Positions 516 to 43,345 of a DNA stretch of 64,000 bases are shown here, in pieces (the first letter of the stretch is position 1; each line of letters begins with the position of its first letter). The position numbers were made by a program, and so were the translations under genes. Under the pieces are notes generated by a model. It searched no databases and was not told the DNA's origin. It saw nothing but the letters and a program-made list of their open reading frames with translations. Source of the DNA: Cyanidioschyzon merolae (taxonomy: Eukaryota). The stretch is from NCBI GenBank assembly GCA_000091205.1, contig AP006490.2; one strand, 5' to 3'.

Positions 516-1355
516 AAGTTTATCGAACCTGTTTGTGCGTAAAACGTAGTTTTTGTATGTATGGTCGCTGTTTGGCATCCGGGTCCCTCACAAAGTCTCG
601 GAGCGGTCGCGTATGATGCACCGCCAGCGCCGTGAACCCGCTCGTTGCCCGGCTGCGGACAGCGCGTCGGCACTGCTTGCCGCATGCACGCCAGCAAGAC
701 GAGCTCGACGGGCGCCTGCGAGACAACTCCGTAAAAGCGCGCTCTGCACTATGAGAGACAAGCGCACGACGTCCATGACACCAAATATGATCTGGTACGC
801 GGGGATCGAGTTTCGTCGCTGACCACGAACGAAGCATTCCCGGTGCGATCTGTAAATGGAACAGCTAGGAGATGCCCGCAGACGCTCCGTTGACGAAGAC
901 GCGTATATTAAAGAAGACCATGCGATCCTGCTGGTCATCGTGATCGTGCGTTCTGTGCTTCTGGTAGTGACGAGCACAGCAGGCGCAACGCCTCCGCTCA
1001 GCTAGTTTTCCATCGTTCCAGTGCGGCAGCATCGTATATGGCATCTTCGCTACTGGCGCTGCACACACGCCTGCGATCTGCTCTACTGAAGAGTCCGCGA
1101 GACGAACGAAGCAATCGCGGGATATGCGATGCCTGTCAGCATTCAGTTAATCGACGACCGCTGCACATCAGACTTCGTACGTGCCGAGAACCCGGGGCAA
1201 GACTTGCCTTCGTGGATCACGATGCAGCGCGGGAGCGCTCCTGAGGCACGGCACGCGGGACATCCGCGAACGCATCCATGGTGTTGTAGGGGGCAGCCAA
1301 CCGCCATGCGGTATCGAGGATACCGCTGCGCCGATGGACAAGTCCAAGCGAACGT

Positions 1356-2792
1356 TTACACAGAACCGTTGAATGCCGGGGTCTCCTGCGAGCCTGCCTT
1401 GGCCATGCGCCAGACGTCGTCGCCTCGAGCGAGCAACTCTATCAGGTGCAGGCCGCTGGGCGTCTCCACGATGCCACTCAGTTGGCCGGGTTCCAGGTTG
1501 CGAACGGCTCGTTCGAATTCTGCATGCATCTCACCGGGCCCAAAAGGACGTATCCGACCGCCGTATCGGCTGCTTTTGCAATCGCTATGCTGCAAGGCCA
1601 GCTGTTCAAACGAGACGAGTCCGCTTTGTATCGTTTTCTGGAACTTGGACAGAAGGGCCCGCGCTTCCGCTTTACTACGCACAATGGGGTGGCCCTTCAG
1701 GTCGCTAGGGTTTCGTGATCCGGTATGCTTCAACAATATGTGACGAACATAAAAGACATCGTCCGGTGCCCGAGTCGCGTTCGACTGGGTCGCATCTGTG
1801 TCGCCACCGGTGATGCCGCTCGCGGGTGATGCCTGCTGCTCCGGACAGCGGCGACCGAGCAGCTGAATCAGATGGAAGCCAGACGAGGTCTCCACAACGT
1901 CGCTGATATCGCCGGTATGTTTCAGCTCCAGAAACGCCACTCGGGCAAATGGCTCCTGCATGGTTGTGTAGTCAAACCAGCCCAGGTCGCCACCTCGTTT
2001 GTAAGAATTACAGTCTGATTCGATTCGAGCGACCTCCTCAAAGCTTGCTTCCCCGCTGAGAATGTGTTGCCTCAGAGACTCAATCACAGCGCGTGCCTCA
2101 TCTCGGCTAATGCTCACTGGTTGTCCGGTGCGCTTGGATACCGGGTTCCGCACGTCGCGATGTTTGATAAGGATATGGCGAGCGCGCACCTGTCCAGGAA
2201 CTGGAGCCGCCGCAGTGCTCTCCGCAGGCGATTGACGCTCTGGAGCGCCACCAAGCCGAAGCCTCACGTATTGGGAGCTAGACCCGAACTCTATACGCGA
2301 GCCTTCAGCGATTACAAGTGGCTTAAGCGGCTCAACTTGTTGTCCACGTACTCGCGTGGCCCCAGCGCCCAAGTCGATCAGATAAAACTTTCGATGTTCG
2401 CGGTGAAATGCGACGGCAGCGTGGAGCGCTCCAACGTCAGACGCGTCCGCGAGAACAATGTCAACTGCAGTGGCCTTTCCTTGGCCGTTTCCAACAAGCA
2501 GGTAGCCCCGATTCGCCGGAAAAGGAACTTTGCGGACCCGCTCGTTGCTCTTTTGAGTGTAAACGTCTAGACGTGCGCCAGACGGTGCAGCCCCTAGCCA
2601 ACGTGGTTCTTTAAAGGTAGGTTGGGCTTTTACACCAGAAGCTTTGCGAGCAGCTTCCATAGTCTTTCCGTGCGACTTACCTCCCTGAGCGAGCGCGGTT
2701 TCGCCAGCGCTTTGTTTCCCTCTGTAGTAGACACGACCCACCGGTTTGATAAAGTATACCGCTTCTTTGCTCCCAAAGGTTTCCACGAACAA
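1356..2792 (-). CDS. FHA-domain protein with two tandem parvulin-type (PpiC/rotamase) peptidyl-prolyl isomerase domains
   Basis: 478-aa ORF. N-terminal region has an FHA-like block (GYLLVGNGQGKATAVDIVLADASDV...FYLIDLGAGATRVRGQQVEP...RIEFG). Two rotamase domains (ARHILIKHRDVRNP...GDLGWFDYTTMQEPFARVAF...SSGFHLIQLL and VRHILLKHTGSRNP...SGLHLIELLAR) resemble Pin1/Par14-type PPIase cores. TAA stop. Confidence 0.7.
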   Translation of the reverse strand: MFVETFGSKEAVYFIKPVGRVYYRGKQSAGETALAQGGKSHGKTMEAARKASGVKAQPTFKEPRWLGAAPSGARLDVYTQKSNERVRKVPFPANRGYLLVGNGQGKATAVDIVLADASDVGALHAAVAFHREHRKFYLIDLGAGATRVRGQQVEPLKPLVIAEGSRIEFGSSSQYVRLRLGGAPERQSPAESTAAAPVPGQVRARHILIKHRDVRNPVSKRTGQPVSISRDEARAVIESLRQHILSGEASFEEVARIESDCNSYKRGGDLGWFDYTTMQEPFARVAFLELKHTGDISDVVETSSGFHLIQLLGRRCPEQQASPASGITGGDTDATQSNATRAPDDVFYVRHILLKHTGSRNPSDLKGHPIVRSKAEARALLSKFQKTIQSGLVSFEQLALQHSDCKSSRYGGRIRPFGPGEMHAEFERAVRNLEPGQLSGIVETPSGLHLIELLARGDDVWRMAKAGSQETPAFNGSV

Positions 2793-5154
2793 CTAGAACG
2801 CTGTAGTCTCTACAAATGCGCCCTTGAATATGGAACCTTTCATTGCTACTGAAGTCAGACAGCCGAGCTTTTGGTGCCACAGCTCGAGACGGCTGCGTGC
2901 ACCCCTCTGTAACGCAGGCGTCGTGCCGCCGAACGCTACCCCAGCGAAGTGCGAGCTCGTGCGCACGGCTTTAGCGCCTTTTGCGGCAAACTAGGTGCGC
3001 TGGTCTCGACGCTCACCTTGGGCTACGTCGACATTCGAACGATATTCATCCTTACTGCCGCTGCTGCCGTCATCGGTTTCCTGGCGACGTTCATCTTCCT
3101 TCCGGATGCAACCGGGTTGGATCTGCGCGAACATGACTGGGAATGGGACCTGACTCTTCGTAACCACGCTGAGCTGTACGGCGGCGAGGCCGCCAATCTA
3201 CGACATCTGTCGCTCTGCGAACGCTGGCAAGGCAGAGGCAAACGCTACACGCCGCACTGGCGAGCCCAGTTGCGCAAAGAGGAACGTTCAAGTGATGCAG
3301 CGGCAACCAAGCTAGCAACACCGCCGATCGCGGCGAGCACCCTCATACCGTCTACTGCTCCTGACAATCGCTGAGCATCGAGCGAACGATCCGGTACGAT
3401 GATACGGAGTATGGATGCCGTGCGCGTTGTAAAGGATCAAGTGATATCTATTGACGCTGAGCGAAAGCGTGAGCGACGTACAACTTGACACTTGGGCGCA
3501 GCAGCGCGACGACACGAGCCATGTTCCCGTTTCGAAACGCGAGCACAGCACGAAGGTATCAGCAGTACCAGCGGGTGACTGCGGTAGAACGAGCACTCGC
3601 GCTGCCTGGCAGCGTCTCGCGCATCGCATGGAACTGGAACTCGTGCGTTGCGTTTACGACGAAAGCGCTACACCTGGATCCACCTAAAATGGAATAGGTC
3701 TCATAATTTGGACGCGCTCTCTAAAGCTCGAGACTGTTTCCACTGCCGCCAACACTAGTGTGTGCGGGGATTTTCTGCAACAGCGCCCGTTTGCTCTCTC
3801 TTATTTCAGATTTTAGATACGCCCGTCTCTCCTTTCTTTGCGGCTCCGATGTCAGCAGTGAAAGCACGATGGCGGTAGCGTCAGCATCCCGATTCGGACG
3901 CTTCTGGTTGTTTGCGACGCATTGCGTTCACGGACGGGAGATGCAATCTACGGTTCGCTTGCCATTTCGAGCCTCTTGGTATGCAACTTCTGTGCAAACT
4001 CTCTAGCTGTGGCACTTGGTTGTGGTCAGGCCCTCCCGAATGCATGTGTCAGACCTGCCCGTGCTCCGAGCGCTGCTGTGTCGCGCGTCCAGGCTCGCTG
4101 CGTCGCTCTGTTCATACCCCTTCGGATCCAGAAGGCTCCATTGGATGCTGTTCTCGTTTTCAACGCTCAGTGCTGCATCCAACGATCTGGGGCTTCTTCT
4201 GAGTGATGTCCTCCGGGAGTATTCTGTCTGGTGCACGGGCGGTTGCAGGCTATTCCCGCTGACCGAGGATGTATGGAACGTGATGAATTCCATCATAAAT
4301 CGAATACCAAAAACAAAATCCAGGCTGGAGATCATAAGCACAAGTGTCTGCCCGTCACCGTTCCCATTGTGCAAAGCGATGAAGACGCTCTCCGCTGGAC
4401 CCAGTGGATGCGATGACTCAATTCCGAAGACAAGAGCCTTTTCGATGCAAACAGAAGATACGGAAGCGTTTGGGAGCGTGTCACCCGAAATGCAGCATGC
4501 CGGTGCTGTCGAATGCAGTTGTGTCACTGGTCACAGCCACAGGAGGGTTTGTCTTTCGAACGCAATCGAATATTTGGGTGAGAAACTCAGGGACTTTTCG
4601 GCTTGAGCTGGCGAAGAACGCATCCTGGAATGACGCCCCGTTTTTTGATTCCCCTTCAATCCCACATCGCCTATAACGTTCCTTAGCGAGAGATCCATAA
4701 AATTAAAGCACGCGCGATTTGAACATCCTGCACATAAGGAACGGAGAAGACCGGAGGCTTATCCATATGGACTGACGATTGATATCCTTTGTTTCACGAA
4801 AACTAGTTCGAAGGAGGCGTGAAACGTCCTCATTCCGGCCACGTACCGAATTCCAGCGGCAAAGCGTCGAAAGAGCCACGTCGAACAGCGTGACATGAAT
4901 CCTGAGGCTACTTGTATGCGTCCGTAAGCTGTTACTTTTTGCACGTCGAAAACCGACTTTGCACATCTAAATTTTCGTTCGAAAAATACTCCGAGATGTA
5001 GGAACAAAGCACAGCATCCCGTGGTGCACTTCACTCGGATACGTATGAAGCGTATGCCGCTCTTCGACGAACGCTAGCTCAGCTTGTCTGCTGCTTGCTG
5101 ACCTCGAGGCGACCAGTGAGCGCCTCGAAGCACTCGAGTTGTCACGCCTAGGGT

Positions 5155-10693: not shown

Positions 10694-10949
10694 CTATGTT
10701 CACCACTTAAGTTGGCTGCAGGCGTGCAACCAGGGGATTTTGCCTGCTTTTCACGGTTTGCTCGGGAGCAGATAACAGCGCGAATGCCGAAGCGAACAAC
10801 GTTACGTCAGCGCAGCAAACCCGTTTCGCCACAATATCGTGTACATGAATATCCACCCGCAGACGTGTCTCAGCCTTTTCTTACAGGGTTCTGGTATCGG
10901 TTTCAGTTTCTCCATATACACTCCGACGCTGTGAGGCTGCCCAACAAAG

Positions 10950-11600
10950 TTAGCTTGCCGCAGCGCTGCGTGCCTCGCATTCAGCACAAGCATCTCCTGA
11001 TATTGATACCAGCGTTGAGGTCTCGGTTCATGGACTCCATGCGTTTGTTGCCGCTGGTTGATCTCACCAATGATAGGAGACCAGAACTCGTGTACGCTGT
11101 GCCATTGGGTGCTCTGTCAGCTCTTCGTGCTGATTTGTCGACGAAATGCTCCGCTGGCCTCGCTCCAACTCAACGTCCTAGGGTGTATATTCCAGCTCAT
11201 CCCTTCGATTTTTCGAAAATGAACGCATTTGCTTATAGCCTGAGATGAGAACCTTCCCGCATCGAGCAGCACATGCGGAATAAAGACCAAATGTGCCCCG
11301 GTTGGTCACCATGTGCTGAACGCTTCATCAATTCGCCCGGTGGAGCGATCGTGACGATTCAGGACCCCAAACTCTCCTTCTATGGGGATGAACCACGGGT
11401 GACAAGAAGGAATGAAACCAGCTCTACCCCTCGATAGAATTGGCAAGTGCTCGAACTGAAGCAGAACGGCTGAATACCACTGTGTCCAATAGAAGGACCT
11501 TACCAGACGTTTGGGACAAGTCTTCAATGACTCGACAAAAAGAGGGCGCTGCTGCATGAGTGTTCTCTTCAGCGGAACTGAGGCAGCCAAATGAATCCAC
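10950..11600 (-). mobile_element. Degraded fragment (copy 4) of the TnpB/Fanzor-like element family, minus strand, frameshifted
   Basis: The minus-strand translation gives VELERGQRSISSTNQHEELTEHPMAQRTRVLVSYH and, after a frameshift, GNKRMESMNRDLNAGINIRRC. These match copy 1 ([39 protein letters not shown]...[21 protein letters not shown]). The plus-strand ORF 10712..11248 is the mirror image of the same region. Confidence 0.5.
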
Positions 11601-12712: not shown

Positions 12713-14599
12713 CTAACGATTCAGAGTGGCAATGTTGACAGCAGGCACGCGCCGCTGACGCACAGCTTGAGGATCGCTTCGATTCGAGACCACGGCGACA
12801 ATACGCGACCATTTCAGCGCACCGAATGCGACTTCTCCGTCACTGGCCTGCAGCTCAACTAGGCGTCGTGCAACGCGCATCTTAGCTTCCAGGACCTCGA
12901 GGGAAGCGTCCGTCGGGTCGCAGAGCCAATCCACAAAGCCCGCCATACTAGCCAACGCGACAACTCCGATTCTCGACAGACCTAGCGCAGCGAATACCGC
13001 CGCAGCAGCGAGCCGCTCTTCTTCCGAAGGATGCCGTGCACAGTCCAGGACAATGGGCAGTGCATTCGTGAACGCCTTGACGGGATCCGCATCCCTGATC
13101 GCATCAGTGAACAGATGCAGCACCCTTTGCTGCCGAAATTCGAGGTCGGATTCGGCGGCTCCGTACCCTGAGACGGCTGCTGATGAAAGCGGCTCGTCGA
13201 GACCTGCCAGGAACACACTCAAAGCACGCAAGGAGGCCACTCGAATATCGCACACGCTCGCCGTTTGAATGAAACGAAGCGTTAGTTTCAAGGTGTCAAC
13301 GTCCGCAAGCAGCACGTCCATGCCGCGTTCACAGAGCCCCAGAGCGCCAACCGCGGAGATCAGATGCACCAGCAGTGTCGTCCGACGAACTTGATCAAGT
13401 CGTACGGACCAGTGTGCTGTCTCAGTCTCGCCATCTACCACGTGAAGCAAGAGAAAGCGCCCAAGAATCTCTACGAGATTGGCGTTCATCCAAGCGTGGA
13501 AGGCGCAACGACTGGACCCGGCACTGGTGCGCACGAACCTCAGAATCCCACACATCCAAATAAACCAGCGTTCCGCCAAGTCGCTCGAGGCAGGCTCGTC
13601 TGGCGCCAACAAATGGGCAAGGTGTTGGCGTAGCAGCACATCGAATACCGAAATTTGGTCGAGCAACTCGGCTGCTATTGCACTGCGTTGCATAAAAGCC
13701 CCAAGCACATCCAGCAAGTTCAAGCGGAGTAGCAAGTCCTCATCCAAACGAACAGGAGCTGCGATTTTGGCTACAAGCACGGTTGGCAACAGCCGACGTG
13801 CGGCAATCTCTGCAACAGACGAGTAGTCGCAGATCTCAAGCAGGAAGCTCAAGGCTCGGATATGCGCGACCGCACCCGCTGCACCCGAGAGCATCTCCTG
13901 TACGAGGATTTGCGCGCCTCGTGCTTCGCTGAAGAGCACAACTGCGCCGCGGAACGGCTTCAGCTGTACCAGGTTCTTCAGGATTTTTTCACAAAGTCCC
14001 GCAGCTTCGGTGGATGGATCATCACGGAAGCTCAGCAGCACCAGTGACAGGATATCGCTGGCGTGCTGTGCAGTTGTGCTGGGAGCGTCCACTTCTGGAC
14101 CTGGCGCTTGTGCGGCCTCTATCTCCGGACGAAGCTCGTTCGTACTTTCAAAACGTTCGATAATGGTGTCTGCAACTTGCTGACAAAACGCTTCAGGCAA
14201 GTCATTCCGTTCAAGAAGGAGACAAAGCAGACGGAGCGCAGCTGTGCGTACCAGCGGGTACCGGCTGCTCAGACCGAGCTGGATGAGCTGGAGCACCTGC
14301 TCTGTAGGTACGACGTGACGAACTCGGGCACTTGTTGCAGAGAGCTTGACCAGTTTCTCCATTGTTTTCGTTAATACCCGGATGGAATCAAATATGTTGT
14401 CGGATGGTACCGCGTCGCTGTCTGAAGCCTCGAGCGACGCCCGCACCGCGTACTCCTCCAGTGTCCAGCCCAGCAGCGGTAACGGCAAACGCTCCAGCAA
14501 GTCCAGTGCCGCACACTCCGACAGTGCTCCAGCGTCTACATATTCCCTCACTGTATCCAATACTTTATCGGGAGTCCAGTCATTGTGGTGAGCGTTCAT
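12713..14599 (-). CDS. Hypothetical HEAT/ARM-repeat-like helical protein (628 aa), function unknown
   Basis: Long uninterrupted ORF with Leu-rich amphipathic helical repeats. No specific family recognised by eye. TAG stop. Confidence 0.4.
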   Translation of the reverse strand: MNAHHNDWTPDKVLDTVREYVDAGALSECAALDLLERLPLPLLGWTLEEYAVRASLEASDSDAVPSDNIFDSIRVLTKTMEKLVKLSATSARVRHVVPTEQVLQLIQLGLSSRYPLVRTAALRLLCLLLERNDLPEAFCQQVADTIIERFESTNELRPEIEAAQAPGPEVDAPSTTAQHASDILSLVLLSFRDDPSTEAAGLCEKILKNLVQLKPFRGAVVLFSEARGAQILVQEMLSGAAGAVAHIRALSFLLEICDYSSVAEIAARRLLPTVLVAKIAAPVRLDEDLLLRLNLLDVLGAFMQRSAIAAELLDQISVFDVLLRQHLAHLLAPDEPASSDLAERWFIWMCGILRFVRTSAGSSRCAFHAWMNANLVEILGRFLLLHVVDGETETAHWSVRLDQVRRTTLLVHLISAVGALGLCERGMDVLLADVDTLKLTLRFIQTASVCDIRVASLRALSVFLAGLDEPLSSAAVSGYGAAESDLEFRQQRVLHLFTDAIRDADPVKAFTNALPIVLDCARHPSEEERLAAAAVFAALGLSRIGVVALASMAGFVDWLCDPTDASLEVLEAKMRVARRLVELQASDGEVAFGALKWSRIVAVVSNRSDPQAVRQRRVPAVNIATLNR

Positions 14600-15355
14600 T
14601 CAGCAACAGGTTATCACGCTTTGAGATAGACATATCCAGAAGCAATCTCCTGATCGGCGGCGGGGCGCAGGACAGCCGCTGCGCGTGCACGCGCACCTGG
14701 CAGATCCGGCGGGCACGAGACACGACGCTCTGGTCGCTCCTGAGGGGAACAGTGATCCTGATCATTGGCGTGCTATTCTACTGTAAAAGTTGTATTCGCG
14801 TTGAGGTCGTAGCAAAGTATAGGTTTTCTGTTCCATCCTATTCCGACCCTCAATTGAGTATATTCAAGTGTTTTTTCGAAGTAAATAACAGAAGCGTTCA
14901 AAGAGCGTTCGTTTTCATAAAAAATTAAAAGGAAAGGCATGGAAATGGAAGTGGAGGATCCCGGAGGGCCGATATCGCCGGCTCTCGGAAAAGAAGGATA
15001 AACATGGCGGAGCAAAGAGGAACAGGAAGTGATGAAGAATCAAAAGGGGGCGAGGTTCTACGTCGAAGGCGGCAAGAAAGGCAACTGTACGGCGATATTG
15101 TAGTGAAAGCCTGTGTTCTTAAATATATCAAGGATCCGTAGAAGGAAAAGTTGCCGGACGCCATCAAAAACCGTCTCGAGTCGTACTCCATGAGTATGAT
15201 AAAGGCTTCTTCAGGACCGACGCATTTGGTGAGGGAGATGTATCGCTACGTGACGAACATGGAAACGGTCGAGATTCCGGACGAGTTTTTCGACAACACA
15301 TTTTTTCGTCACTTGATGCTTGGCACAGGGGAAGAGCGGAAGGATATAAGAGCTA

Positions 15356-17506
15356 GTGCATGCCCCTCACGAACAACATCCCTTTTGCAGGTTCGAGGGT
15401 AATCGAAACAAGGGGGACTGGGGTATTTACGACTATGGGGCGATGAAGTACATCACGAACCTGAAGAACCATTTGAAAACGAACCTCGAACGTTTCATGA
15501 TACGCGCCGTGTTTGCACTCTACCGGGGCCTGTCTCGCAAAGGAATATGGGCGATTATCAATGGCATCACGAACGATCGAAACTATGGAAATGAGGTCGA
15601 ATTCGTTGACAAGAAGGAGTCAAACCAGAGCACGAATGAGAATTCCGTCATCCGTGCGGTTATCGAAGAGCATCGTGCGGTACTGGGGCTGGCGAATCCA
15701 ACAGACAAGATATCAGAGTTGAAAAAAGATAGGGAAAGATACGATCGCCTCGTTCTGCGCTATTTTGTGTTTCTGGACCGAGAGCTCGAACGCAAAGCGG
15801 AGATGAAGCTGAGTGAAGAGACAAATGAAGAGTGGGAGAGACGGAAGGCTTTCCTAATGGGTAAGCGCTTCGACGTGGTTCCAATGTGCAAGATCAAGTC
15901 ACATTTTATGACTATCGACTCCGGCGTCCTTTACGGCATCATGAGGGAGATCTGTCCGGAGTTCGATGTAAGGAAGACAGAGTTCCCCGGTGAAAACCGT
16001 GAGACGTACTGGAAGAATATCTTCGATTTCAAACGTCGCAAAGTCAGCAAACAAAAGGTATTCACTGGGTTGATCGAAACCGAAAGAGTAGCCTTGTGTA
16101 TACACTATCGGAGGTTGAAGAAAGATCGGCCAGTCCCTCCCTCGGCTGCGTCCGTCACGAAAAATGAAGAAAAGGAGGAGGCTGGTCCTGCGAAGCAGGA
16201 GGTAGAGGATAACGACCTTGTCGTTCACGCGGCGAAGAATGAAGAAAAGAAGGAGGCGGGTCCTGCGACGCAGGAAGTGGAGGGTAACGACCTTGTCGTT
16301 GACGTGACGAAGGATGAAGAAAAGAAGGATGCGGATCCTGCGACGCAGGAGGTAGAGAATAACAGCTTCATCGTTAACGCGACGAAGCATGAAGAAAAGA
16401 AGGAGGCGGGTCCTGCGATGCAGGAGGTGCATGAGAAGGACCTTCTCGTTGGCGCGGCGAAGGATGAAGATGAGAAGGATGCGGATCCTGCGACGCAGGA
16501 GGTAGAGAATAACGACTTTATGGTTGACGTGACGAAGCATGAAGAAAATGAGGATGCGGGTCCTGCGACCCAGAAAGTGCAAGATAACGACTTTGTCGTT
16601 GGCGCGGACCCTGGGAATACGAATATCATCACCATTGCAGCACCGAAGCGTGCGGAAGATCGTACTGACGGCAACTTGCGTCAGAAAGACATGCGTCTTT
16701 TGAGGTTCTCGAGAGCGAGATACTATCGAGAATCGGGAATCATGAATGCGAGGAAGAAAATCGAGACTTGGAATTCAGGAATGAAAGAGCACCTGGAAGC
16801 TGTGAGCGAGGTAACGAGCCGAGGAGCGGACTTTGAAGCTTTTCGGAAATTCATGGAAGTTCGTGTTGCGCATTGGGATGCTCTGTGGGAGGAGTATACC
16901 AAGCCCCGGTGGGCTCGACTGCGTATGAATCTATACGGTGGGAGGCAGCGCGCATTCCCAAATTTTTTCAATCAGTTGAGTGCCCTGAAGGAGGATGAAA
17001 GTCAGAGGCTCGTAGTAGCGTACGCAGCAGGGCGCTGGAAGACCCAAAAAGGGACTACTCCGGCCCCAACGACAAGAACGTTCAAGGAGTGCGCAAGGCG
17101 TTTCGTTACGATACCTGTAGATGAGTTCCGAACGTCGTATACGCACCATGAACTGGGGTGTACACTCCAGAGGGTGGAGATGGAAAAGTGCCAGCGGAGC
17201 CCTGAGGACACAGCAAAGCACGGACTGCTGACGGAGGAGCAAATGGAAAGGATGGCAAAAGTTCGTGGACTGCTTGCATTAGTGAGTACAACCAGTGATG
17301 GTAAGAAACGTATGGAATTCGTGAACCGTGACTTTAACGCCGCTATCAATATACGGAAATGTGCGGTGCTGGAGAAGAGACCTCCAGAATTGACAGGAGA
17401 GAATTTCGTTGGACAACCTCTCAAAGTCGAACTATATGAGAAAAAGTTGGAGGCAGTTGTAGGCGGCCGGTCGAGAAAGGCTGGGAGGCGTCTGCACGTC
17501 AGGTAA
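15356..17506 (+). CDS. TnpB/Fanzor-like RuvC-fold nuclease protein (transposon-encoded, IS605-OrfB/Cas12-related family)
   Basis: RuvC-I-like [15 protein letters not shown]. TnpB-like linker [26 protein letters not shown]. Zn-finger-like segment [11 protein letters not shown]...EKCQRS. Diagnostic RuvC-III motif [18 protein letters not shown] near the C-terminus. TAA stop. Confidence 0.7.
16160..16609 (+). repeat. In-frame 75-bp (25-aa) tandem repeat x6 inside the Fanzor-like ORF
   Basis: Units [150 protein letters not shown]. The last unit runs into the RuvC-I strand. Copy 2 has a single unit. Confidence 0.85.
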
Positions 17507-17824
17507 AGAGTTTTGTCTAAGGCGCCGGTCGTCTCAACTGTACACTGGCACCATCGCCGGTGCATTCGACAGATGGTGTCCATGTTGTACTGAATTTACC
17601 AGTCTCCGGCGTCGTGCAGCCGCGGCCCCGCTGCAGCACTGGCAGTGTCGCCACCGCCGTCCTTTCGTTCGCTCATCGGGTATCGTCTCCAGTCCGACTT
17701 GCTAGTGGCCCGCCTTCCCTGTAGAGGAAACAGGGACTGGACTGTTCGTGACCTCGCTACCGAGTTCCGGTCGCTGTTTGAGTTCTCTTGCAGTTGCGGT
17801 TTCCGCTAACTACTTGTCTTTCGC

Positions 17825-18598
17825 ATGGCGCGTGGCCCAAAGAAGCATCTGAAGCGCCTGGCAGCGCCAAGGCACTGGATGCTCGCTAAACTTGGCGGCA
17901 TCTGGGCCCCTCGACCTTCAGCTGGCCCACATAAGCTTCGAGAATGTTTACCTCTGATCATCATTCTGCGAAACCGGTTGAAGTACGCGCTCACTGGGCG
18001 AGAGGCTATGCAGATCCTCATGCAGCGGCTGGTTCGTGTGGACGGGAAAGTTCGCACAGACCGCACTTTTCCCGCTGGCTTCATGGATGTTATCCATATC
18101 GAAAAAACCAATGAGACATTTCGTTTACTCTACGACACAAAGGGGCGTTTTGTGCTCCATCGAATCACACCCGAGGAGGGCAAGTACAAACTGTGCCGCA
18201 TCAAGCGTCAACAACTGGGTGCCCGTGGCATCCCGTACATCGTGACACACGACGGGCGCACCATTCGGTATCCAGATCCATTGATCAAAGTGCACGACAC
18301 CGTCGTCCTTGATATCGAGACCGGGAAGATCACGGACTTTGTCAAATTCGACATCGGCGCGCTCTGCATGATCACCGGAGGCCACAATATTGGTCGCGTT
18401 GGTGTCGTACAGCACCGCGAGAGACACCCGGGTGCGACTGAAATTGTGCACTTGAAGGACGCTGCAGGGCGAGAGTTTGCGACACAGATCAGTAACGTGT
18501 TCGTTATTGGTCGAGAAAAGTCGCTCGTCTCGCTACCGCGTGGCAAGGGAGTGAAGCTCTCCGTCGTTGAGGAGCGCGAGCGGCGAGGCCTGCTCTAG
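17825..18598 (+). CDS. RPS4: 40S ribosomal protein S4 (eS4)
   Basis: [44 protein letters not shown]... is near-identical to eukaryotic RPS4 along the full length (257 aa). TAG stop. Confidence 0.95.
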
Positions 18599-18949
18599 AC
18601 ACACACATGCAGCGCGCTTGGCAACATACGCCGTTGGTTGACGTGAATCAAAGCGGATTGGGAGCCTTCCAGTGTCTCGTAAAGACGGAGAACCGTTTGC
18701 GGGAACTGTTCGAGGAACATCGGTTGGGACACCTCCCGTGAGGAGGCGGGACGCTCTGCCTCCATGGATATTCCCTCAACGCAGCACCCGTGTCAGATAA
18801 AAATGGAATACTGTACTACTCGCCATGTGACTGTTTCTCGATTTTTTACGAATCTTATCAGATGTACGGCATCGGCATTCGAAACGCAGCGGTGAGAGCT
18901 TACAGGGTCATGAATTGCTTCAGGATCCCTGACCGTATGTTCGTTCGGA

Positions 18950-38264: not shown

Positions 38265-40330
38265 CTGAAAATAAACGTCTTTCTAAGGAAAAACGCTGCC
38301 ACCGGCGGGCGCAATACAGTCTTGGCGAGAAACCCGCCCTGGACAAGACTTCTCCAACTGACGTGCAGACGCCTGCCAGCCTTTCTGGAACGGGCACCCA
38401 CTACTGCTTCCAATTCTTTCTCATATAGTTCCATTTTGAGAGGCTGTCCGACAAAATGCTCTCTTGTCTACGCTGAAGGTCTGTTCTCCATCACCGCACA
38501 TCGCCTTCAATGGATAGCGGTATTTACGTCCCGGTTCTCAAACTCCATACGTTTCTTGTTATTGATCGTACTTACTGATGCAAGTTGTCCACGAACTTTT
38601 GCCATCCTTTCCATTTGCTCTTCCGTTAGCTGTTCGTACTTTTTTATATCTTCAGGGCTCCGCTCGCACTTTTTCATCTCAACTCTCTGGCGTGTACAAC
38701 CCAGTTCGTGGTTTGTATACGATGCCCGGAACTCATCGATGGGTATCGTAACGAAACGCCTTGCGCACTCTCTGAATGTTCTTGTCGTTGGAGCTGGCCT
38801 AGTCCCTTTTTGGGTCTTCCAGCGCCCTGCTCGGTACACTACTAAAAGCCTCTGACTGTCCTCCTCCTTCAAGGCGCTCAACCCATTGAAAAAGTTTGCG
38901 AACGCCCGCTGCATCCCCCAGTACAATTTCATAATGAAAAGAGAACACCGGGGCTTTGTATATTCTTTCCACAGCGCCTCCCAATGGGCAACACGAACTT
39001 CCATGAATTTCCGAAAAGCTTCCTAGGCCGCTCCGCGGCTCGTCACCTCGCTCAAAGCTTCCAGGTGATCATTCATTCCTGCATTCTACGTCTCGATTTT
39101 CTTGCTTGCATTCATGATTCCCGATTCTCGATGGTATCTCGCTCTCGAGAATCTCAACAGACGCATGTCTTTCTGAGGCAAGTTACCGTCAATGCCATCT
39201 TCCGCACGCTTGGGTACTGCGATGGTTACGATATTCGTGTTCCCGGGGTCCGCGCCAACGACAAGGTCGTTATCCTGGGGATTATACATTTCAGGGCCCA
39301 CCTCCATCTTATCTTCATGCTTCGTCACGGGCGAAGCGCAAGGCGCGATGGGACGATCCACCTTCAACCTCCGATACTGTACACACATGGCTACTCCATC
39401 GGTTTCGATCATCCCAGCGAATACCTTTTATTTGCTCACTTTGGGACGTTTGAAATCGAAGATATTCTTCCAGTACGTCTCACGGTTTTCACCGGGGAAC
39501 TCTGTCTTCCTTACATCGAACTCCGGACAGATCTCCCTCATGATGCCTTGAAGGACTCTGGAGCCGATGGTCACACAGTGTGACTCGATGTTGTTCAACG
39601 GAACGACGTTAAATTGCTTCCCCATTAGGAAAGCCTTTCGTATCTCCGACGCTTCATTTTTCTCCTCACTCAGCTTCATCTATGCCTCGCGTTCCAGTCC
39701 TCGGTCCAGGAACACGAAATAGCGCAGGATGAGGCGATCGTATCTTTTCTTATCTTTTTTTTCATCTCTGATAACTTTTCTGTTCGGTTCGCCAGCCCCA
39801 GTACCGCACGATGCTCTTGTATAACCCAACGGATTACAGGAGCTTCATTCTTTCTCCTGCGTGATGTCTTCTTGTCGAAGAATTCGATCTCCTGTTCATT
39901 CTGGCAATCCTTCGTGATGCCATTGATAATCGCCCATATTCCTTTGCGAGCGATGCCCGGGTAGAGTGCATAGACGGAGCGTTTCATGAAGCGTTCGAGG
40001 TTCATCGTCAAATGGTTCTTCAGGTCCGTATGGTACTTGATCGTCCCGTAGGTTTAAAGATCCGAATCACCCCTGTATCGTGTACCCTCAGGGCGGTACT
40101 CGGCGTGATTCTCGTGGAGGGCATGAACCCGCTCATTTCCCCTCCGCGTTTCCCCTGTGCCAAGCATCAGGCGACAAATCAAGGTCCTGTCGAAAACGCT
40201 TTCGAAATCTCGACTGGTTTGATGTCCGTCACTGCTGCTGTGCCAGGGAAACTTCGTGCGCCTGATCGCACGCTGGAATGTGTTGTCGACGGGGCGCACT
40301 TCGGTGCAATGGATGGAACGTTGCGGAGCG
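38265..40330 (-). mobile_element. TnpB/Fanzor-like element, copy 2 (inverted, frameshifted/degraded, single repeat unit). Boundaries are approximate
   Basis: Minus-strand ORF pieces 40054..40299, 39676..40011, 39428..39679, 39086..39412, 38507..39004 and 38252..38434 are colinear with copy 1 protein (LMLGTGE..., [11 protein letters not shown]..., [69 protein letters not shown]..., [23 protein letters not shown]). Conserved 3' tail is present. Confidence 0.65.
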
Positions 40331-40533
40331 GAACGCTGACAACATCTCCGTTCGGGCGCACAGGAACGACGCGATGCTTGGCAATGACCGCTGTCTGTTT
40401 CGACTTATCGGTCTGCGTAAGCGGATGTAACCAAACGGCACCGAAAATGATACAGGAGCGAGCGCACGATCCGCTCGCGCCCTGCGGGGGTCCGTTGCTC
40501 CCCTGCGATGCCCTCTAGCGATGCCCGTTGTCT

Positions 40534-42717
40534 TTACGCTGCATTCCCCGATTCTCTTTTCGCGAAAAGCTCGTACTCAACCTCTAGACTATCGTTTGTG
40601 GGATAGTCGGCTACAACCCGCTCGTACAAGTAGAGCGCATTCTCGTTCGTGACACTCTCGTCGATGTAGGCGCGTGCCTCGCGCAGCAGACGTGCGCTAT
40701 CTCGAGACAGACCCCACAGATGCAGCCGAATACCATAGCTCCTATACTGACGGGCTAGGGAGTCTAGCGCCTCTAGCGCTGTCGCGTCCCAGATGCGGCT
40801 ACCAGAGAAGTCGATGATCACGTGCTCATGGCCTTCGGCACGATCCCGTGCTGGGTCGAACAGACGACTGAAGCGCTCCGCCGTGCCAAAGAACAGCGGA
40901 CCGTCAATCCGGTATCCCCGCCATCCGCGCGTTTGCTCGTCCTCCGAAATAAAGCTCTGGGCGGTAATGCGTCGCGACGCTTTATAGGCAAAGACCAGCG
41001 CCGAGAATACCACACCAAACAGGACCGCCAGGGCGACGTTGCGCGTTGCTACAGTCATCAGGGCAACGCTCACAATGGTCAGCGAATCAGCGAGAGGTAT
41101 GGCACGAAACAAGCGCAGCGATGCCCATTCGAATGAGCCCAGCGCCACCAGCACCATAAGGCTTGCAATGGCTGGGACGGGAATCCGAATCATCAGTCCG
41201 CTCGGATTTCTCGCCAACACGAGAAGACACAGCGCCGCAGTCAGTCCAGAGAGACGCCCGCGTCCCCCTGATTTCGTGTTCAGAAGCGACTGGCCCAGGA
41301 GGCCGCAGCCGCCCACGCCACCGAATAAGCCCGCGGCGATATTCCCTGCCCCAAGCGCTAGACACTCCCGACGCGTGCTACCCCGCGATTCCGTGACTTC
41401 GTCTACCAAAGTCATGGTTAAAAGAGATTCCAAAAGACCGATGAATGCGAGACCAAGCGCGGTGCTCAGAATGGCCATCCATGCCAGCGGTGTTGACGGC
41501 AGGGCTGCCCAGGATACGCCAATGGCCCCTGACTGTGCCAGCGTGTCGCGCAAAAAGTCGCCAAGCCGCCGCACAGGCGCTTGCGTCACCTCCGCATAAA
41601 TGGATGCCACGAGGATGCCCGCTAGTGGGCTTGGGAGCCAACGCAACAGCTCAGCGAGGCGGTGCTGCCACCGATGGGTACTATCGGGGCGCCGGCGCTC
41701 TAGTCGCTGAATGATCAAGGGCCATACATGGGCGACTCCAGCGGCGAGCGCTGCGACGATCAACGCTGCACGCAACATGTTACCCTGGAGCCAGGGTGCG
41801 CCCGGGCTCAGCCCGGTTCCCGCTGGAAGCTGAAACGCATAGACCTGACTTGTCGCCGTCAAGATGGCGATGCCGCTGATGAATCCCAGAAAGGTAGGGT
41901 ACGATATCAGCCGCACAAACTTTCCCAAACGATAGATCCCGAAGAAAAGCTGGAGTATACCGCTGAGCACCACGGCGGCAGCGACCGCTGCTGCGCCGTA
42001 CTGTTGATAGAGAGGCGCTTGCAGAATAATGAGCGCTGCAGATGTTCCCGAGATCATGCCAGGGCGTCCTCCCAGTGCGGCAGTTATCGCACACAGGAGA
42101 CCAGTCGAGACGATTCCAGCGAGCGGCGGCACGCCCGTGGCCAACGCGCAAGACGCCGCCGCAGGCAGCAGCGCCATCGCCACCGTAATGCCCGCCAGCA
42201 CTTCCTCTACCGTCGAGCGTAGCGGATAGCGCGCTGTGCGTTCGTCCAAAATCCGACGCTCTCCAACGAAATAGCGCCCGATATCCTCACGTGGTGCAAC
42301 GAGCGGGAAGAGCCCTCGCTCACCAGGCTTGGGACGGTGCCTCGCTTCGGCGTCGGGGGTACCCCCTGGCGCCGAACCTGTCCCCCGTACGCGAGCAAGT
42401 GCTCCGCAGCGCGTACGCCGCCTCGCGCGGAACCCAGGCACCACCAGCGAGTTGCACTGGCTCCGGTTCCGTACGACGAAACGTACGCCGCTACCGCTGA
42501 AGGTATTCGTTACTATGAAACCGCCTAAAGCATTCTCAACGCCCATGTTCCGACGAAAGTACCTTGCGTGTCCAGTGAACAGGCAGTGCACAACAAGGCG
42601 CTCGTGCATTGCCGATGCTTCCGACGCGAGCGCTGAGATCCGTACATGCAATCTCGGATGGCGGGCAGTTTGATCTCCGCATGAATCTATAATGTGGGGA
42701 GTATCGGGCATTCGCAA
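40534..42717 (-). CDS. SulP-family sulfate/anion transporter. The about 150-aa N-terminal part of the ORF is probably upstream non-coding read-through, with the true start at an internal Met
   Basis: Multi-TM core (TVEEVLAGITVAMALLPAAASCALATGVPPLAGIVSTG...GGRPGMISGTSAALIIL...) plus C-terminal STAS-like region (YRIDGPLFFGTAERF...VIIDFSGSRIWDATALEALDSLARQY). TAA stop. Confidence 0.8.
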   Translation of the reverse strand: MRMPDTPHIIDSCGDQTARHPRLHVRISALASEASAMHERLVVHCLFTGHARYFRRNMGVENALGGFIVTNTFSGSGVRFVVRNRSQCNSLVVPGFRARRRTRCGALARVRGTGSAPGGTPDAEARHRPKPGERGLFPLVAPREDIGRYFVGERRILDERTARYPLRSTVEEVLAGITVAMALLPAAASCALATGVPPLAGIVSTGLLCAITAALGGRPGMISGTSAALIILQAPLYQQYGAAAVAAAVVLSGILQLFFGIYRLGKFVRLISYPTFLGFISGIAILTATSQVYAFQLPAGTGLSPGAPWLQGNMLRAALIVAALAAGVAHVWPLIIQRLERRRPDSTHRWQHRLAELLRWLPSPLAGILVASIYAEVTQAPVRRLGDFLRDTLAQSGAIGVSWAALPSTPLAWMAILSTALGLAFIGLLESLLTMTLVDEVTESRGSTRRECLALGAGNIAAGLFGGVGGCGLLGQSLLNTKSGGRGRLSGLTAALCLLVLARNPSGLMIRIPVPAIASLMVLVALGSFEWASLRLFRAIPLADSLTIVSVALMTVATRNVALAVLFGVVFSALVFAYKASRRITAQSFISEDEQTRGWRGYRIDGPLFFGTAERFSRLFDPARDRAEGHEHVIIDFSGSRIWDATALEALDSLARQYRSYGIRLHLWGLSRDSARLLREARAYIDESVTNENALYLYERVVADYPTNDSLEVEYELFAKRESGNAA

Positions 42718-43345
42718 TTTTTTTTTCAGTGAGTTGAGTGCCTTGAAGGAGGATGAAAGTCAAAGGCTCGTAGTAGCGTACGAAGCAAGGCGCTGGACGA
42801 CCCAACAAGGGTGTACACCAGATCCCACGACGAGAACGTATACGGAGTGCGCAAGGCGTTTTGTTATAATACCGGTAGATGGATTTCGAGCATTGTATAC
42901 ACACCATGAACTGGGCTGTACACTTCAGAGGGTCGAGATGGAAAAGTGCCAGCGGGGACCTGAGGATATAAAAAAAGTACGGACCGCTGACAGAAGAGCA
43001 AATGGAAAGGATAGCGAAAGTTCGAGGATTGCTTGCGTTAGTAAGTACAATCAACGGCAAGAAACGTATGGAGTTTGTGAACCGAGACTTTAACGCCGCA
43101 ATCAATATAAGGAAATGTGCGGTGAGAGAGGAAAGACCTCTCGGGTCGACGAGAGAGAATTTTGGAGGAAAACCGCTCAAAGTTAAACTATATGAGAAAA
43201 AGTTTGAAGCAGTAGTAGGTGGCCGGTCCAAAAAGACGGGCAGGCTTCTGCACATCAGTCGGAGACATTTCTTCTAGGGCGGCCCGGTCGCCACTACTGT
43301 ACACCGCTGGCGTCGTTCGCCTCCTGAACAGCGTTCGGTGTCGGC
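42715..43345 (+). mobile_element. TnpB/Fanzor-like element, copy 3. A 5'-truncated 3' fragment that begins at a poly-T tract
   Basis: About 90% nucleotide identity to copy 1 positions about 16962-17590. Encodes [20 protein letters not shown]... and [19 protein letters not shown] with frameshifts. Conserved post-stop tail is present. Confidence 0.65.

Follow-up and report, generated by a model that had tools for sequence, protein, structure and literature searches.

The stretch of DNA analysed here (the window, 64,000 nucleotides) is nuclear DNA of Cyanidioschyzon merolae 10D, and its RPS4 gene (17825-18598) matches C. merolae 10D XP_005536157.1 at 100% identity. Between a proteasome-related HEAT-repeat gene (12713-14599) and RPS4 lies a mobile element, copy 1, with a 716-codon open frame that is real and uninterrupted, as the initial annotation had stated. 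The frame is, however, no complete gene: as listed it starts at a GTG, its first in-frame ATG (15443) gives 687 aa, and the homologous coding sequence starts at an ATG at 14939, with three stops and two frameshifts before 15350. Three further copies exist in the window, so that the earlier count of four, on both strands, holds; their coordinates needed correction, and copy 4 covers only 10907-11200 instead of 10950-11600 (Table 1).

Table 1. Features of the CMe-1A copies in the window.
Feature	Position	Strand	Observation
Copy 1 (CMe-1A, Fanzor1 element)	~14680-17580	+	Consensus ~646-3137, plus diverged right end (end comparisons); blastn match to consensus 658-3137 at 84-90% identity
Copy 1, left-end GC-rich palindrome TGCGCGTGCACGCGCA	14680-14695	+	
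Copy 1, degraded N-terminal coding part	14939-15349	+	5 lesions (comparison with Fanzor1 coding sequence)
Lesion 1, TAA	14999-15001	+	
Lesion 2, +2 insertion	15050-15051	+	
Lesion 3, TAG	15139-15141	+	
Lesion 4, +1 insertion	~15340	+	
Lesion 5, TAA	15347-15349	+	
716-codon open frame	15356-17506	+	CMe-1 consensus residues 139-728
Six tandem 75-bp units	16157-16606	+	25-aa acidic/lysine-rich repeat, directly upstream of RuvC-I
Codon D418, RuvC-I, motif DPG	16607-16609	+	Invariant in 47/47 diverse relatives
Codon E590, RuvC-II, motif DEFRTS (VDEFRTS)	17123-17125	+	Invariant in 47/47 relatives; aligns with DEYKTS of SpuFz1
Codon D659, RuvC-III, motif NRDFNAAIN	17330-17332	+	D in 46/47 relatives; aligns with NRD of SpuFz1, PpFz and GtFz
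Copy 1, 3' non-coding right-end module	17507-17580	+	Only part matches the family model
Copy 2	38270-40232	-	5'-truncated, consensus 1215-3169, 85% identity
Copy 2, complete right-end module	38270-38358	-	
Copy 3	42674-43343	+	5'-truncated, consensus 2507-3145, 84% identity, frameshifted
Copy 3, complete right-end module	43258-43343	+	
Copy 4, 294-bp fragment	10907-11200	-	Consensus 2737-3032, 68% identity

The element belongs to CMe-1/CMe-1A, a Fanzor1 repeat family of this red alga described by Bao & Jurka (2013, Mobile DNA 4:12; PMC3627910), who reported ~150 copies in the genome, lacking TIRs and ~80-85% identical to the consensus. The CMe-1A consensus (3169 bp) and the CMe-1 protein were taken from the supplements of that paper. 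By blastn, the consensus aligns with all four window copies, in the case of copy 1 over most of its length, and the open frame is 91% identical to the CMe-1 protein in its C-terminal half and 76% in its N-terminal half. At least 446 family matches were confirmed in hot-spring metagenome contigs, and 52 independent insertion sites were resolved in related contigs; with these sites and the four window copies, the protein is encoded by a multi-copy repeat of a eukaryotic genome. The initial annotation, which read the locus as a TnpB/Fanzor-type RuvC nuclease in a multi-copy eukaryotic nuclear element, was right, and this work is a correct rediscovery of the C. merolae Fanzor1; since the family was published in 2013, the find is not new. 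The claim that such elements are rare in eukaryotic nuclear genomes is not supported: besides the ~150 copies in this genome, hundreds of Fanzor proteins have been recorded from eukaryotes (PMC10432273).

Searched as a single sequence against Pfam, NCBIfam and the PDB, the open frame matches nothing significantly, so that its assignment to Fanzor1 rests on a transitive profile and a predicted structure. A profile built from close relatives alone had as its best match an insignificant one to the RuvC-I of IscB. A profile of the open frame with 46 diverse relatives matches three solved Fanzor1 proteins (PpFz 9cf0, E=1.1e-21; SpuFz 8gkh, 2.1e-13; GtFz 9cer, 1.3e-7), with the RuvC-I, -II and -III motifs aligned. 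The AlphaFold model has a pLDDT of 73 and a pTM of 0.69, and its RuvC half (410-680) lies mostly above 90 per 10-residue block; an earlier model from 122 close relatives (pLDDT 44) was left out of the fold search. In a Foldseek search of the PDB, Fanzor1 structures take the first seven places, with E from 5e-11 to 9e-8, TM of 0.43-0.60 (on target length) and alignments of 705-839 columns, about the whole model length; Cas12, Fanzor2 and TnpB structures rank below them. Sequence profile and predicted fold thus give firm support to the open-frame protein being a Fanzor1. The initial annotation's statement that the N-terminal 260 aa have no recognisable homology has to be dropped in view of the near-whole-length Foldseek alignments and of the family profile, whose alignment with the Parasitella Fanzor1 chain takes in the region before RuvC.

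The split RuvC domain carries a conserved D...E...D triad, intact in the open frame. Both motifs named earlier, RuvC-I and RuvC-III, are present with their conserved aspartates (Table 1), and D418 is aligned with DPN in SpuFz1, whose D383 is catalytic (PMC10432273). The region between RuvC-II and RuvC-III is less conventional. In the aligned profile, the cysteines of a CxxC...CxxC zinc ribbon are absent from the open frame and from the wider clade: SpuFz, PpFz and GtFz carry CPRC/CPKC/CPSC and a second Cys pair, where the aligned CMe-1 positions read SYTHHELGC...LLALVST. The proposed Zn-finger-like insert therefore sits where the ribbon of Fanzor1 and TnpB sits, but it lacks the canonical cysteines, and its H597, H598, C602 and C612 are not conserved beyond the C. 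merolae family; no Cys/His column is kept in the clade. Since homology and fold are clear, we treat the missing ribbon as a variant feature and no bar to membership. The 25-aa repeat, a region of predicted disorder, has one unit in the consensus, six in copy 1 and one to six in other copies.

All three of the other window copies are truncated at the 5' end. Copy 2, with one 25-aa unit, has its reading frame broken into ORFs of at most 165 aa, and copy 4 covers the RuvC-III region spread over three different frames. Copies 1 and 3 share 82-85% of their DNA and 79-80% of their protein sequence, so that copy 3 falls short of the ~90% identity reported for it, and the two are not near-identical; across the window, the copies are 68-90% identical in DNA, both among themselves and with the consensus. 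The four copies are old and defective, one near full length and three 5'-truncated, all with disabling lesions. With the divergence of copies 1 and 3 and the defects in 4/4 copies, the idea of a recently active family is not supported. In copy 1, at least four of the five lesions are common to the orthologous loci L002, L003 and L035, and the TAG reads TAC in L003. Because these lesions fall in the first 411 nt, the open frame lacks ~138 N-terminal residues and a natural start; the lost residues include a KKRK nuclear-localisation-like stretch of the CMe-1 consensus, and with this part destroyed copy 1 has probably lost nuclease activity. We conclude with high confidence that the open frame is the surviving open 3' five-sixths of a Fanzor1 gene in an old defective CMe-1A copy, a confidence that applies to the explanation as a whole: Fanzor1 remnant, old defective copy and the ancestral function proposed below.

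Copies diverged mainly at synonymous sites, so that purifying selection acted on the protein during the diversification of the family: dN/dS is ~0.20 when copies are compared with the consensus and 0.23 when they are compared in pairs (copy 1, 0.10; copy 2, 0.31), in a sample biased by the choice of loci through protein similarity to the window open frame. It could be argued that selection still holds the N-terminally truncated frame (687 aa) itself, as an exapted or still-selfish short Fanzor. The five lesions crowd into 411 nt with none in the next 2150 nt, a distribution that a random fall over ~2570 nt of coding sequence would give with a chance of ~(0.16)^5, and four orthologues show zero indels over 2148 nt, including the 6x75-bp repeat. 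Their pN/pS of 0.4-0.7 would also fit, but it is unreadable as selection, L035 being a recombinant or chimeric contig and the L004 differences being clustered. Premature stops interrupt the frame in L004 (at 16049) and L035 (at 16808). The differences between orthologues are few and partly clustered, which suggests gene conversion or chimeric assembly: near 16750 the L035 sequence switches to that of a paralogue, and in L004 the differences reach 7% within a block at 17101-17300. Such events would import variation that looks selected, and the 3' half could have been renewed by them. Moreover, a protein starting at 15443 is without the nuclear-localisation-like stretch and a portion of its N-terminal domain (the first ~167 CMe-1 residues are absent), and no annotated NCBI protein of matching sequence was found. 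We regard a retained short gene as clearly unlikely.

An intact, recently active element, with the 716-aa frame as a working programmable nuclease, is very unlikely. The long frame, its intact triad and the dN/dS of 0.10 of the RuvC half against the consensus would all be expected of one, but the frame has no natural start, at least four of the five lesions ahead of it recur in orthologous loci of other strains, the window copies are diverged, copies 2-4 are truncated and broken, and among 59 ORF-spanning copies in related contigs only 3 have an ORF longer than 700 aa. A TnpB or Cas12 gene of prokaryotic origin, present by contamination or recent horizontal transfer, would share the RuvC core and could account for the weak fold matches to TnpB (8h1j, E=9e-3) and several Cas12, but has practically no chance, being refuted by the position between C. 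merolae host genes and by a ranking in which Fanzor1 is best in sequence and fold by many orders of magnitude, while the OrfB_IS605, OrfB_Zn_ribbon and NCBIfam TnpB models do not match the frame and the element has neither a TnpA gene nor a CRISPR array.

The left-end palindrome of copy 1 folds with weak z-scores (mean -0.9), so that we keep it as a sequence observation, statistically unsupported as a structure; GCGCTC-NNN-GAGCGC stands at its position in other copies. The 635-bp TE-N2_CMe-like module with which the published consensus begins is missing from copy 1. Most copies in related contigs begin near consensus 646-690, with the TE-N2-like part absent, direct or inverted, which suggests that the 3169-bp consensus is a composite. 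The 5' modules differ between copies. Solo right-end fragments lie upstream of some copies (L026, L030, L081); we rejected them as terminal direct repeats, since most of the copies that share the 5' module do not have them.

The right end is precisely conserved and common to 52 independent insertion sites, beyond which the sequences diverge. Its parts are a small GGCG/CGCC stem, the motif CACTACTGTACAC and a terminal hairpin of 10-12 bp. In copy 1, the usual hairpin is replaced by CACCATC...GATGGTG (17549-17555 / 17572-17578). Folded one by one, most of 33 ends are predicted to form a hairpin over the terminal inverted repeat (mean z -2.4). In a covariance-model alignment of 56 ends, a procedure that leans towards its model, all ten hairpin pairs show double changes, and none of the five measures observed is equalled by more than 2 of 500 shuffles. 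Support for the hairpin came only with these two approaches: RNAalifold on the 33 ends recovered the small GGCG/CGCC stem only, and in a fixed-register test on their MAFFT alignment covariation was not above shuffles. Rfam had no match in the window, and diversity at four-fold sites, examined for an overlapping RNA, is 0.21-0.25 at the 3' end of the open frame vs a mean of 0.29. No inverted pair joins 14680-14740 with 17520-17580 among the 25 longest of 79 listed, no target-site duplication was seen in the flanks of copy 1, no empty insertion site was found among the related loci compared, and no conserved TAM-like motif was callable directly 5' of the left end. The anatomy of the family is thereby sharpened to a ~2.5 kb core, a conserved 3' hairpin end and a separable TE-N2-like module.

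Fanzor1 proteins were shown in 2023 to be RNA-guided nucleases, and SpuFz1, GtFz1 and two Fz2 proteins have been characterised (Saito 2023, PMC10432273); the literature that we searched reports no biochemical test of a C. merolae Fanzor protein. By homology with these relatives, with Fanzor1 of solved structure such as PpFz and with bacterial TnpB, the ancestral CMe-1 protein probably cut dsDNA under the guidance of an omegaRNA and served the spread of its element. Bound to and guided by an omegaRNA made from the right end of the element, with flanking sequence as the 3' tail of the RNA, an intact CMe-1 protein would cut matching dsDNA beside a short TAM through its RuvC site; by analogy with TnpB, the cut would help the element to be retained or copied through homologous recombination. 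The conserved structured right end may be taken as indirect support for guided cleavage, and the terminal hairpin could also be a transposition signal and not part of a guide RNA. No companion TnpA or other second gene was found in the element, TNB-domain matches in relatives of the open frame stayed below threshold (best E=0.0012), and a Helitron/HUH search found no Rep or Rep-helicase ORF in the element, with TT(N)G..GGTG-like sequence after the hairpin where CTRR was looked for. We think it improbable, as a bolder proposal, that CMe-1 represents a zinc-ribbon-less Fanzor1 lineage in a thermoacidophilic alga, with TIR-less, 3'-anchored, hairpin-ended and transposase-free elements that spread solely by omegaRNA-guided cleavage and homologous recombination, with the 687-aa frame kept by selection.

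Long-term purifying selection on the coding sequence speaks for a role of the nuclease in the persistence of the element. C. merolae lives in hot acid springs, and for this reason an intact member of the CMe-1 family could be an interesting compact editor.

Several known systems resemble the one described here. The Helitron-borne Fanzor1 elements of Chlamydomonas (CRe-1/2/3; Bao & Jurka 2013) are, like CMe-1A, free of TIRs and of a clear TSD, with a fixed 3' hairpin end and variable or truncated 5' ends; in contrast to them, neither a Rep/helicase gene nor a CTRR terminus was seen in CMe-1A, and nothing observed points to rolling-circle transposition. The window protein has a relative in the volvocine alga Tetrabaena. 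The bacterial TnpB of IS200/IS605 (ISDra2, 8H1J) is alike in its RuvC core and in structured DNA near the element ends, and the logic of a right-end guide RNA is likely shared. Its fold match to the open frame is, however, much weaker (E=9e-3) and no Pfam or NCBIfam model matches; its solved chain of 362 residues is about half as long as the open-frame protein, and the CMe-1 element, in a eukaryotic host, has neither a TnpA tyrosine nor a serine recombinase. With SpuFz1 (8GKH, 9CEU-9CEZ), PpFz (9CF0-3) and GtFz (9CER-T), the protein agrees in predicted fold, in RuvC motifs and their spacing and in the pre-RuvC part, but just 12-14% of the residues are identical, the CxxC...CxxC ribbon of their NUC domain is missing from CMe-1 and its wider clade, and CMe-1 has a variable disordered repeat before RuvC-I. 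From the published CMe-1A, copy 1 differs in its five disabling lesions and diverged right end, in six 25-aa units against one in the consensus, and in the 635-bp TE-N2_CMe-like module that only the consensus carries. The two nevertheless belong to one family: copy 1 can be aligned with the consensus for 2.5 kb at 84-90% identity, the proteins are 76-91% identical, and both lack TIRs and a recognisable target-site duplication.

The copies in the window are degraded members of an already described Fanzor1 family. Fanzor1 and Fanzor2, the eukaryotic homologues of bacterial TnpB, were described in 2013 (Bao & Jurka, PMC3627910), and the single Fanzor1 family listed for C. merolae, CMe-1A, has ~150 copies, each ~80% identical to a consensus of ~3 kb, so that the rarity supposed in the initial annotation does not hold (PMC3627910). 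CMe-1A was reported to lack terminal inverted repeats (TIRs), to have undetermined target-site duplications and to share its 5′ 635 bp with a second repeat, TE-N2_CMe, at 95% identity (PMC3627910). We aligned the 3169-bp consensus and the encoded 734-aa protein, CMe-1, both from the supplementary files of PMC3627910, to the window. The 716-codon open frame (ORF) aligns with CMe-1 residues 139–728; its N-terminal 292 residues are 76% identical and its C-terminal 324 residues 91% identical. When the window was compared with itself and searched by tblastn with the ORF, three further places were confirmed to hold related sequence. RPS4 (17825–18598), which has no introns and is identical to XP_005536157.1, places the window in C. 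merolae 10D nuclear DNA.

Features of the Fanzor1 copies in the window
Feature	Position	Strand	Description
Copy 1	14689-17545	+	consensus 658-3137, 84-90% identity
Copy 2	40232-38276	-	consensus 1215-3169, 85% identity
Copy 3	42674-43312	+	consensus 2507-3145, 84% identity
Copy 4	11200-10907	-	consensus 2737-3032, 68% identity
Open frame, 716 codons	15356-17506	+	ORF listing
Copy 1 left-end palindrome	14680-14695	+	TGCGCGTGCACGCGCA
Copy 1 lesion 1, TAA	14999-15001	+	inside KKRK stretch
Copy 1 lesion 2, +2 insertion	15050-15051	+	alignment to consensus
Copy 1 lesion 3, TAG	15139-15141	+	alignment to consensus
Copy 1 lesion 4, +1 insertion	near 15340	+	alignment to consensus
Copy 1 lesion 5, TAA	15347-15349	+	alignment to consensus
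3′ end module, copy 1, partial	17510-17580	+	conserved right end
3′ end module, copy 2	38270-38358	-	conserved right end
3′ end module, copy 3	43258-43343	+	conserved right end

Given ~150 copies in the ~16.5-Mb C. merolae genome, the density of four copies in 64 kb lies well above average. Copies 2 (−) and 3 (+) lie with their truncated 5′ ends facing each other (38270–43343), and between them sits a host sulfate-permease gene (40534–42717, −; Pfam Sulfate_transp and STAS). Two dispersed repeat pairs (19357–19520/32001–32164 and 18944–19055/54231–54342; 76–78% identity) are unrelated to the Fanzor element.

The ORF alone had no match in Pfam, NCBIfam or the PDB. The sole precomputed label on its close relatives is Pfam DUF8286 (PF26935, carried by the metagenome-derived relatives P0001–P0131; the model is missing from the Pfam copy searched), and in public annotation these Fanzor1 proteins thus seem to be filed under a domain of unknown function. 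The family is large: with a cut-off of E ≤ 1e-3, an exhaustive profile search returned 2321 cluster representatives, most of them 600–700 aa long and one encoded by the green alga Tetrabaena socialis. When the ORF was combined with 46 relatives (47 sequences), the resulting profile matched three solved Fanzor1 proteins, Parasitella PpFz (E = 1.1e-21), Spizellomyces SpuFz (E = 2.1e-13) and Guillardia GtFz (E = 1.3e-7), aligning the DPG, DEFRT and NRD motifs with their catalytic motifs; the RuvC-I, -II and -III residues D418, E590 and D659 are fully or almost fully conserved in the 47 sequences. An AlphaFold model from the same alignment (pLDDT 73, pTM 0.69; RuvC half mostly >90; repeat residues 262–403 disordered) has only Fanzor1 structures as its top seven PDB matches (E 5e-11 to 9e-8, TM up to 0.60), followed by Cas12 variants, Fanzor2 and TnpB. 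The profile, fold and triad results thus decide in favour of the Fanzor identity and RuvC fold around D...E...D that the initial annotation had proposed, and the motif strings it quoted are present in the frame. Its view that the N-terminal region lacks homology was mistaken, as the profile match to PpFz takes in the part of that chain before RuvC, and the fold alignments span approximately the whole model. One Fanzor1 hallmark is absent: between RuvC-II and RuvC-III, solved Fanzor1 proteins carry a CxxC and another pair of cysteines, whereas CMe-1 reads SYTHHELGC...LLALVST at the aligned positions, and the clade shows no conserved Cys or His column in the 47-sequence alignment. The likeness of the “Zn-finger-like insert” is therefore positional only.

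Rather than at consensus position 1, most copies in the related contigs begin near 646–690, and a short GC-rich palindrome (GCGCTC-NNN-GAGCGC) lies at that later point. Some copies, including copy 1, lack the TE-N2_CMe-like 635 bp; others have it in direct orientation, or inverted and only a few bases upstream, and two further upstream modules are shared (5′ ends compared at the metagenome loci L010, L013, L015–L017, L030, L048, L050, L067, L070, L076 and L084 and at window 14680). Judged from these alignments, the published 3169-bp consensus therefore seems to be composite, joining a Fanzor core of ~2.5 kb to a repeat that can be separated from it. Since many copies, copies 2–4 among them, keep the 3′ end and are 5′ truncated, the family looks 3′-anchored with variable 5′ ends. 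No TIRs joining the ends of copy 1 were found among the 25 longest of 79 inverted pairs, and no empty site fixing the termini was found among the related loci. Right-end modules also stand alone (consensus ~3073–3168 only; L026 37–123, L030 277–365, L081 413–501), at 0.7–1.1 kb upstream of full copies; they probably arose by extreme 5′ truncation or as insertions nearby.

The central repeat of copy 1 comprises six tandem 75-bp units (16157–16606), each encoding a 25-aa acidic/lysine-rich repeat whose last part is a pseudo RuvC-I strand (..NDFVV..). The palindrome TCCTGCGACGCAGGA, 15 nt long, is present in most units, either exactly or with one base changed. Across 73 copies in the loci, one to six units occur in 16, 12, 14, 14, 4 and 13 copies, respectively. 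Seven loci (L037, L041, L044, L063, L071, L072, L073) hold partial copies joined head-to-head within this region: an inverted arm, which spans consensus 2110/2140 up to 3169 at the furthest, adjoins consensus 2093–3169.

A non-coding 3′ module of ~86 nt is conserved in copies 2 and 3, in part in copy 1, and in loci L001–L085. In 52 independent insertions, the stop codon is followed by a small GGCG-loop-CGCC stem with a variable loop, the almost invariant CACTACTGTACAC and a 10–12-bp terminal hairpin; the insertions diverge within ~10 nt past the hairpin, which sharply defines the 3′ end, and a weak TT(N)G..GGTG pattern lies beyond. The arms occur in two compensating versions, CGTCGTTCGA/TCGAACGGCG and ACGTTTTTC/GAAAGACGT, and for most of the 33 ends that were folded, the predicted structure has a hairpin across this inverted repeat (mean z −2.4). 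In a covariance-model alignment of 56 ends, double changes occur at 10/10 pairs and any of five covariation measures was matched by at most 2/500 shuffles; on a MAFFT alignment, a test for covariation in one register was negative. We hypothesize that this module would be the scaffold end of an omegaRNA. Alternatively, the terminal hairpin could be a transposition signal.

Copy 1 is no intact gene. Its coding sequence starts at ATG 14939 by alignment to the consensus, and the 716-codon frame opens right after the last stop, with the earliest ATG at 15443. At least four of the five lesions are common to the orthologous locus of other strains in hot-spring metagenomes and are therefore old. The frame of copy 2 is split, with no ORF exceeding 165 aa; by tblastn with the ORF, copy 3 is frameshifted and only a fragment is left of copy 4. 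Among 80 related contigs, only 3/59 copies spanning the whole ORF keep a frame >700 aa. The argument for recent activity thus fails: copies 1 and 3, taken as near-identical, share 82–85% DNA identity, and all four are diverged and defective. In 89 copies, a sample biased by its selection for protein similarity, the RuvC half has a dN/dS of ~0.20 when compared with the consensus and 0.23 between pairs of copies (dS ~0.33–0.45), so most divergence arose while the protein was under purifying selection, which fits the long-lasting coding capacity remarked by Bao & Jurka (PMC3627910).

The five lesions all fall within the first 411 nt of the coding sequence, the next ~2150 nt being clean. A comparison of window 14939–17503 with four orthologues (L002, L003, L004, L005) showed, for the 2148 nt after the lesions, no indel in any of them, no stop in three strains and orthologue pN/pS of 0.4–0.7. 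Retention of a truncated protein could produce such a pattern but is very improbable, because two related contigs have internal stops, the differences in L004 cluster in a block and L035 changes over to a paralogue near 16750; the pattern, including the better preservation of the 3′ half, is explained equally well by gene conversion or chimeric assembly. Compared with window 13701–18700, L035 (Ga0080006_1142693) is 98–99% identical until ~16750, inside the Fanzor copy, then 10–19% divergent with an unrelated 3′ flank; either paralogous copies have recombined or the metagenome assembly is chimeric at the repeat.

No experimental test of a C. merolae Fanzor1 protein was found in the literature searched. 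Two Fanzor1 and two Fanzor2 proteins are omegaRNA-guided, TAM-dependent dsDNA nucleases, whose omegaRNA is derived from the right end of the transposon, with the flanking sequence serving as guide (PMC10432273). By analogy, ancestral CMe-1 was most probably a nuclease of the same kind, with the 3′ module as scaffold end. On the model of bacterial TnpB, its activity would have helped the element to be retained or copied through recombination.
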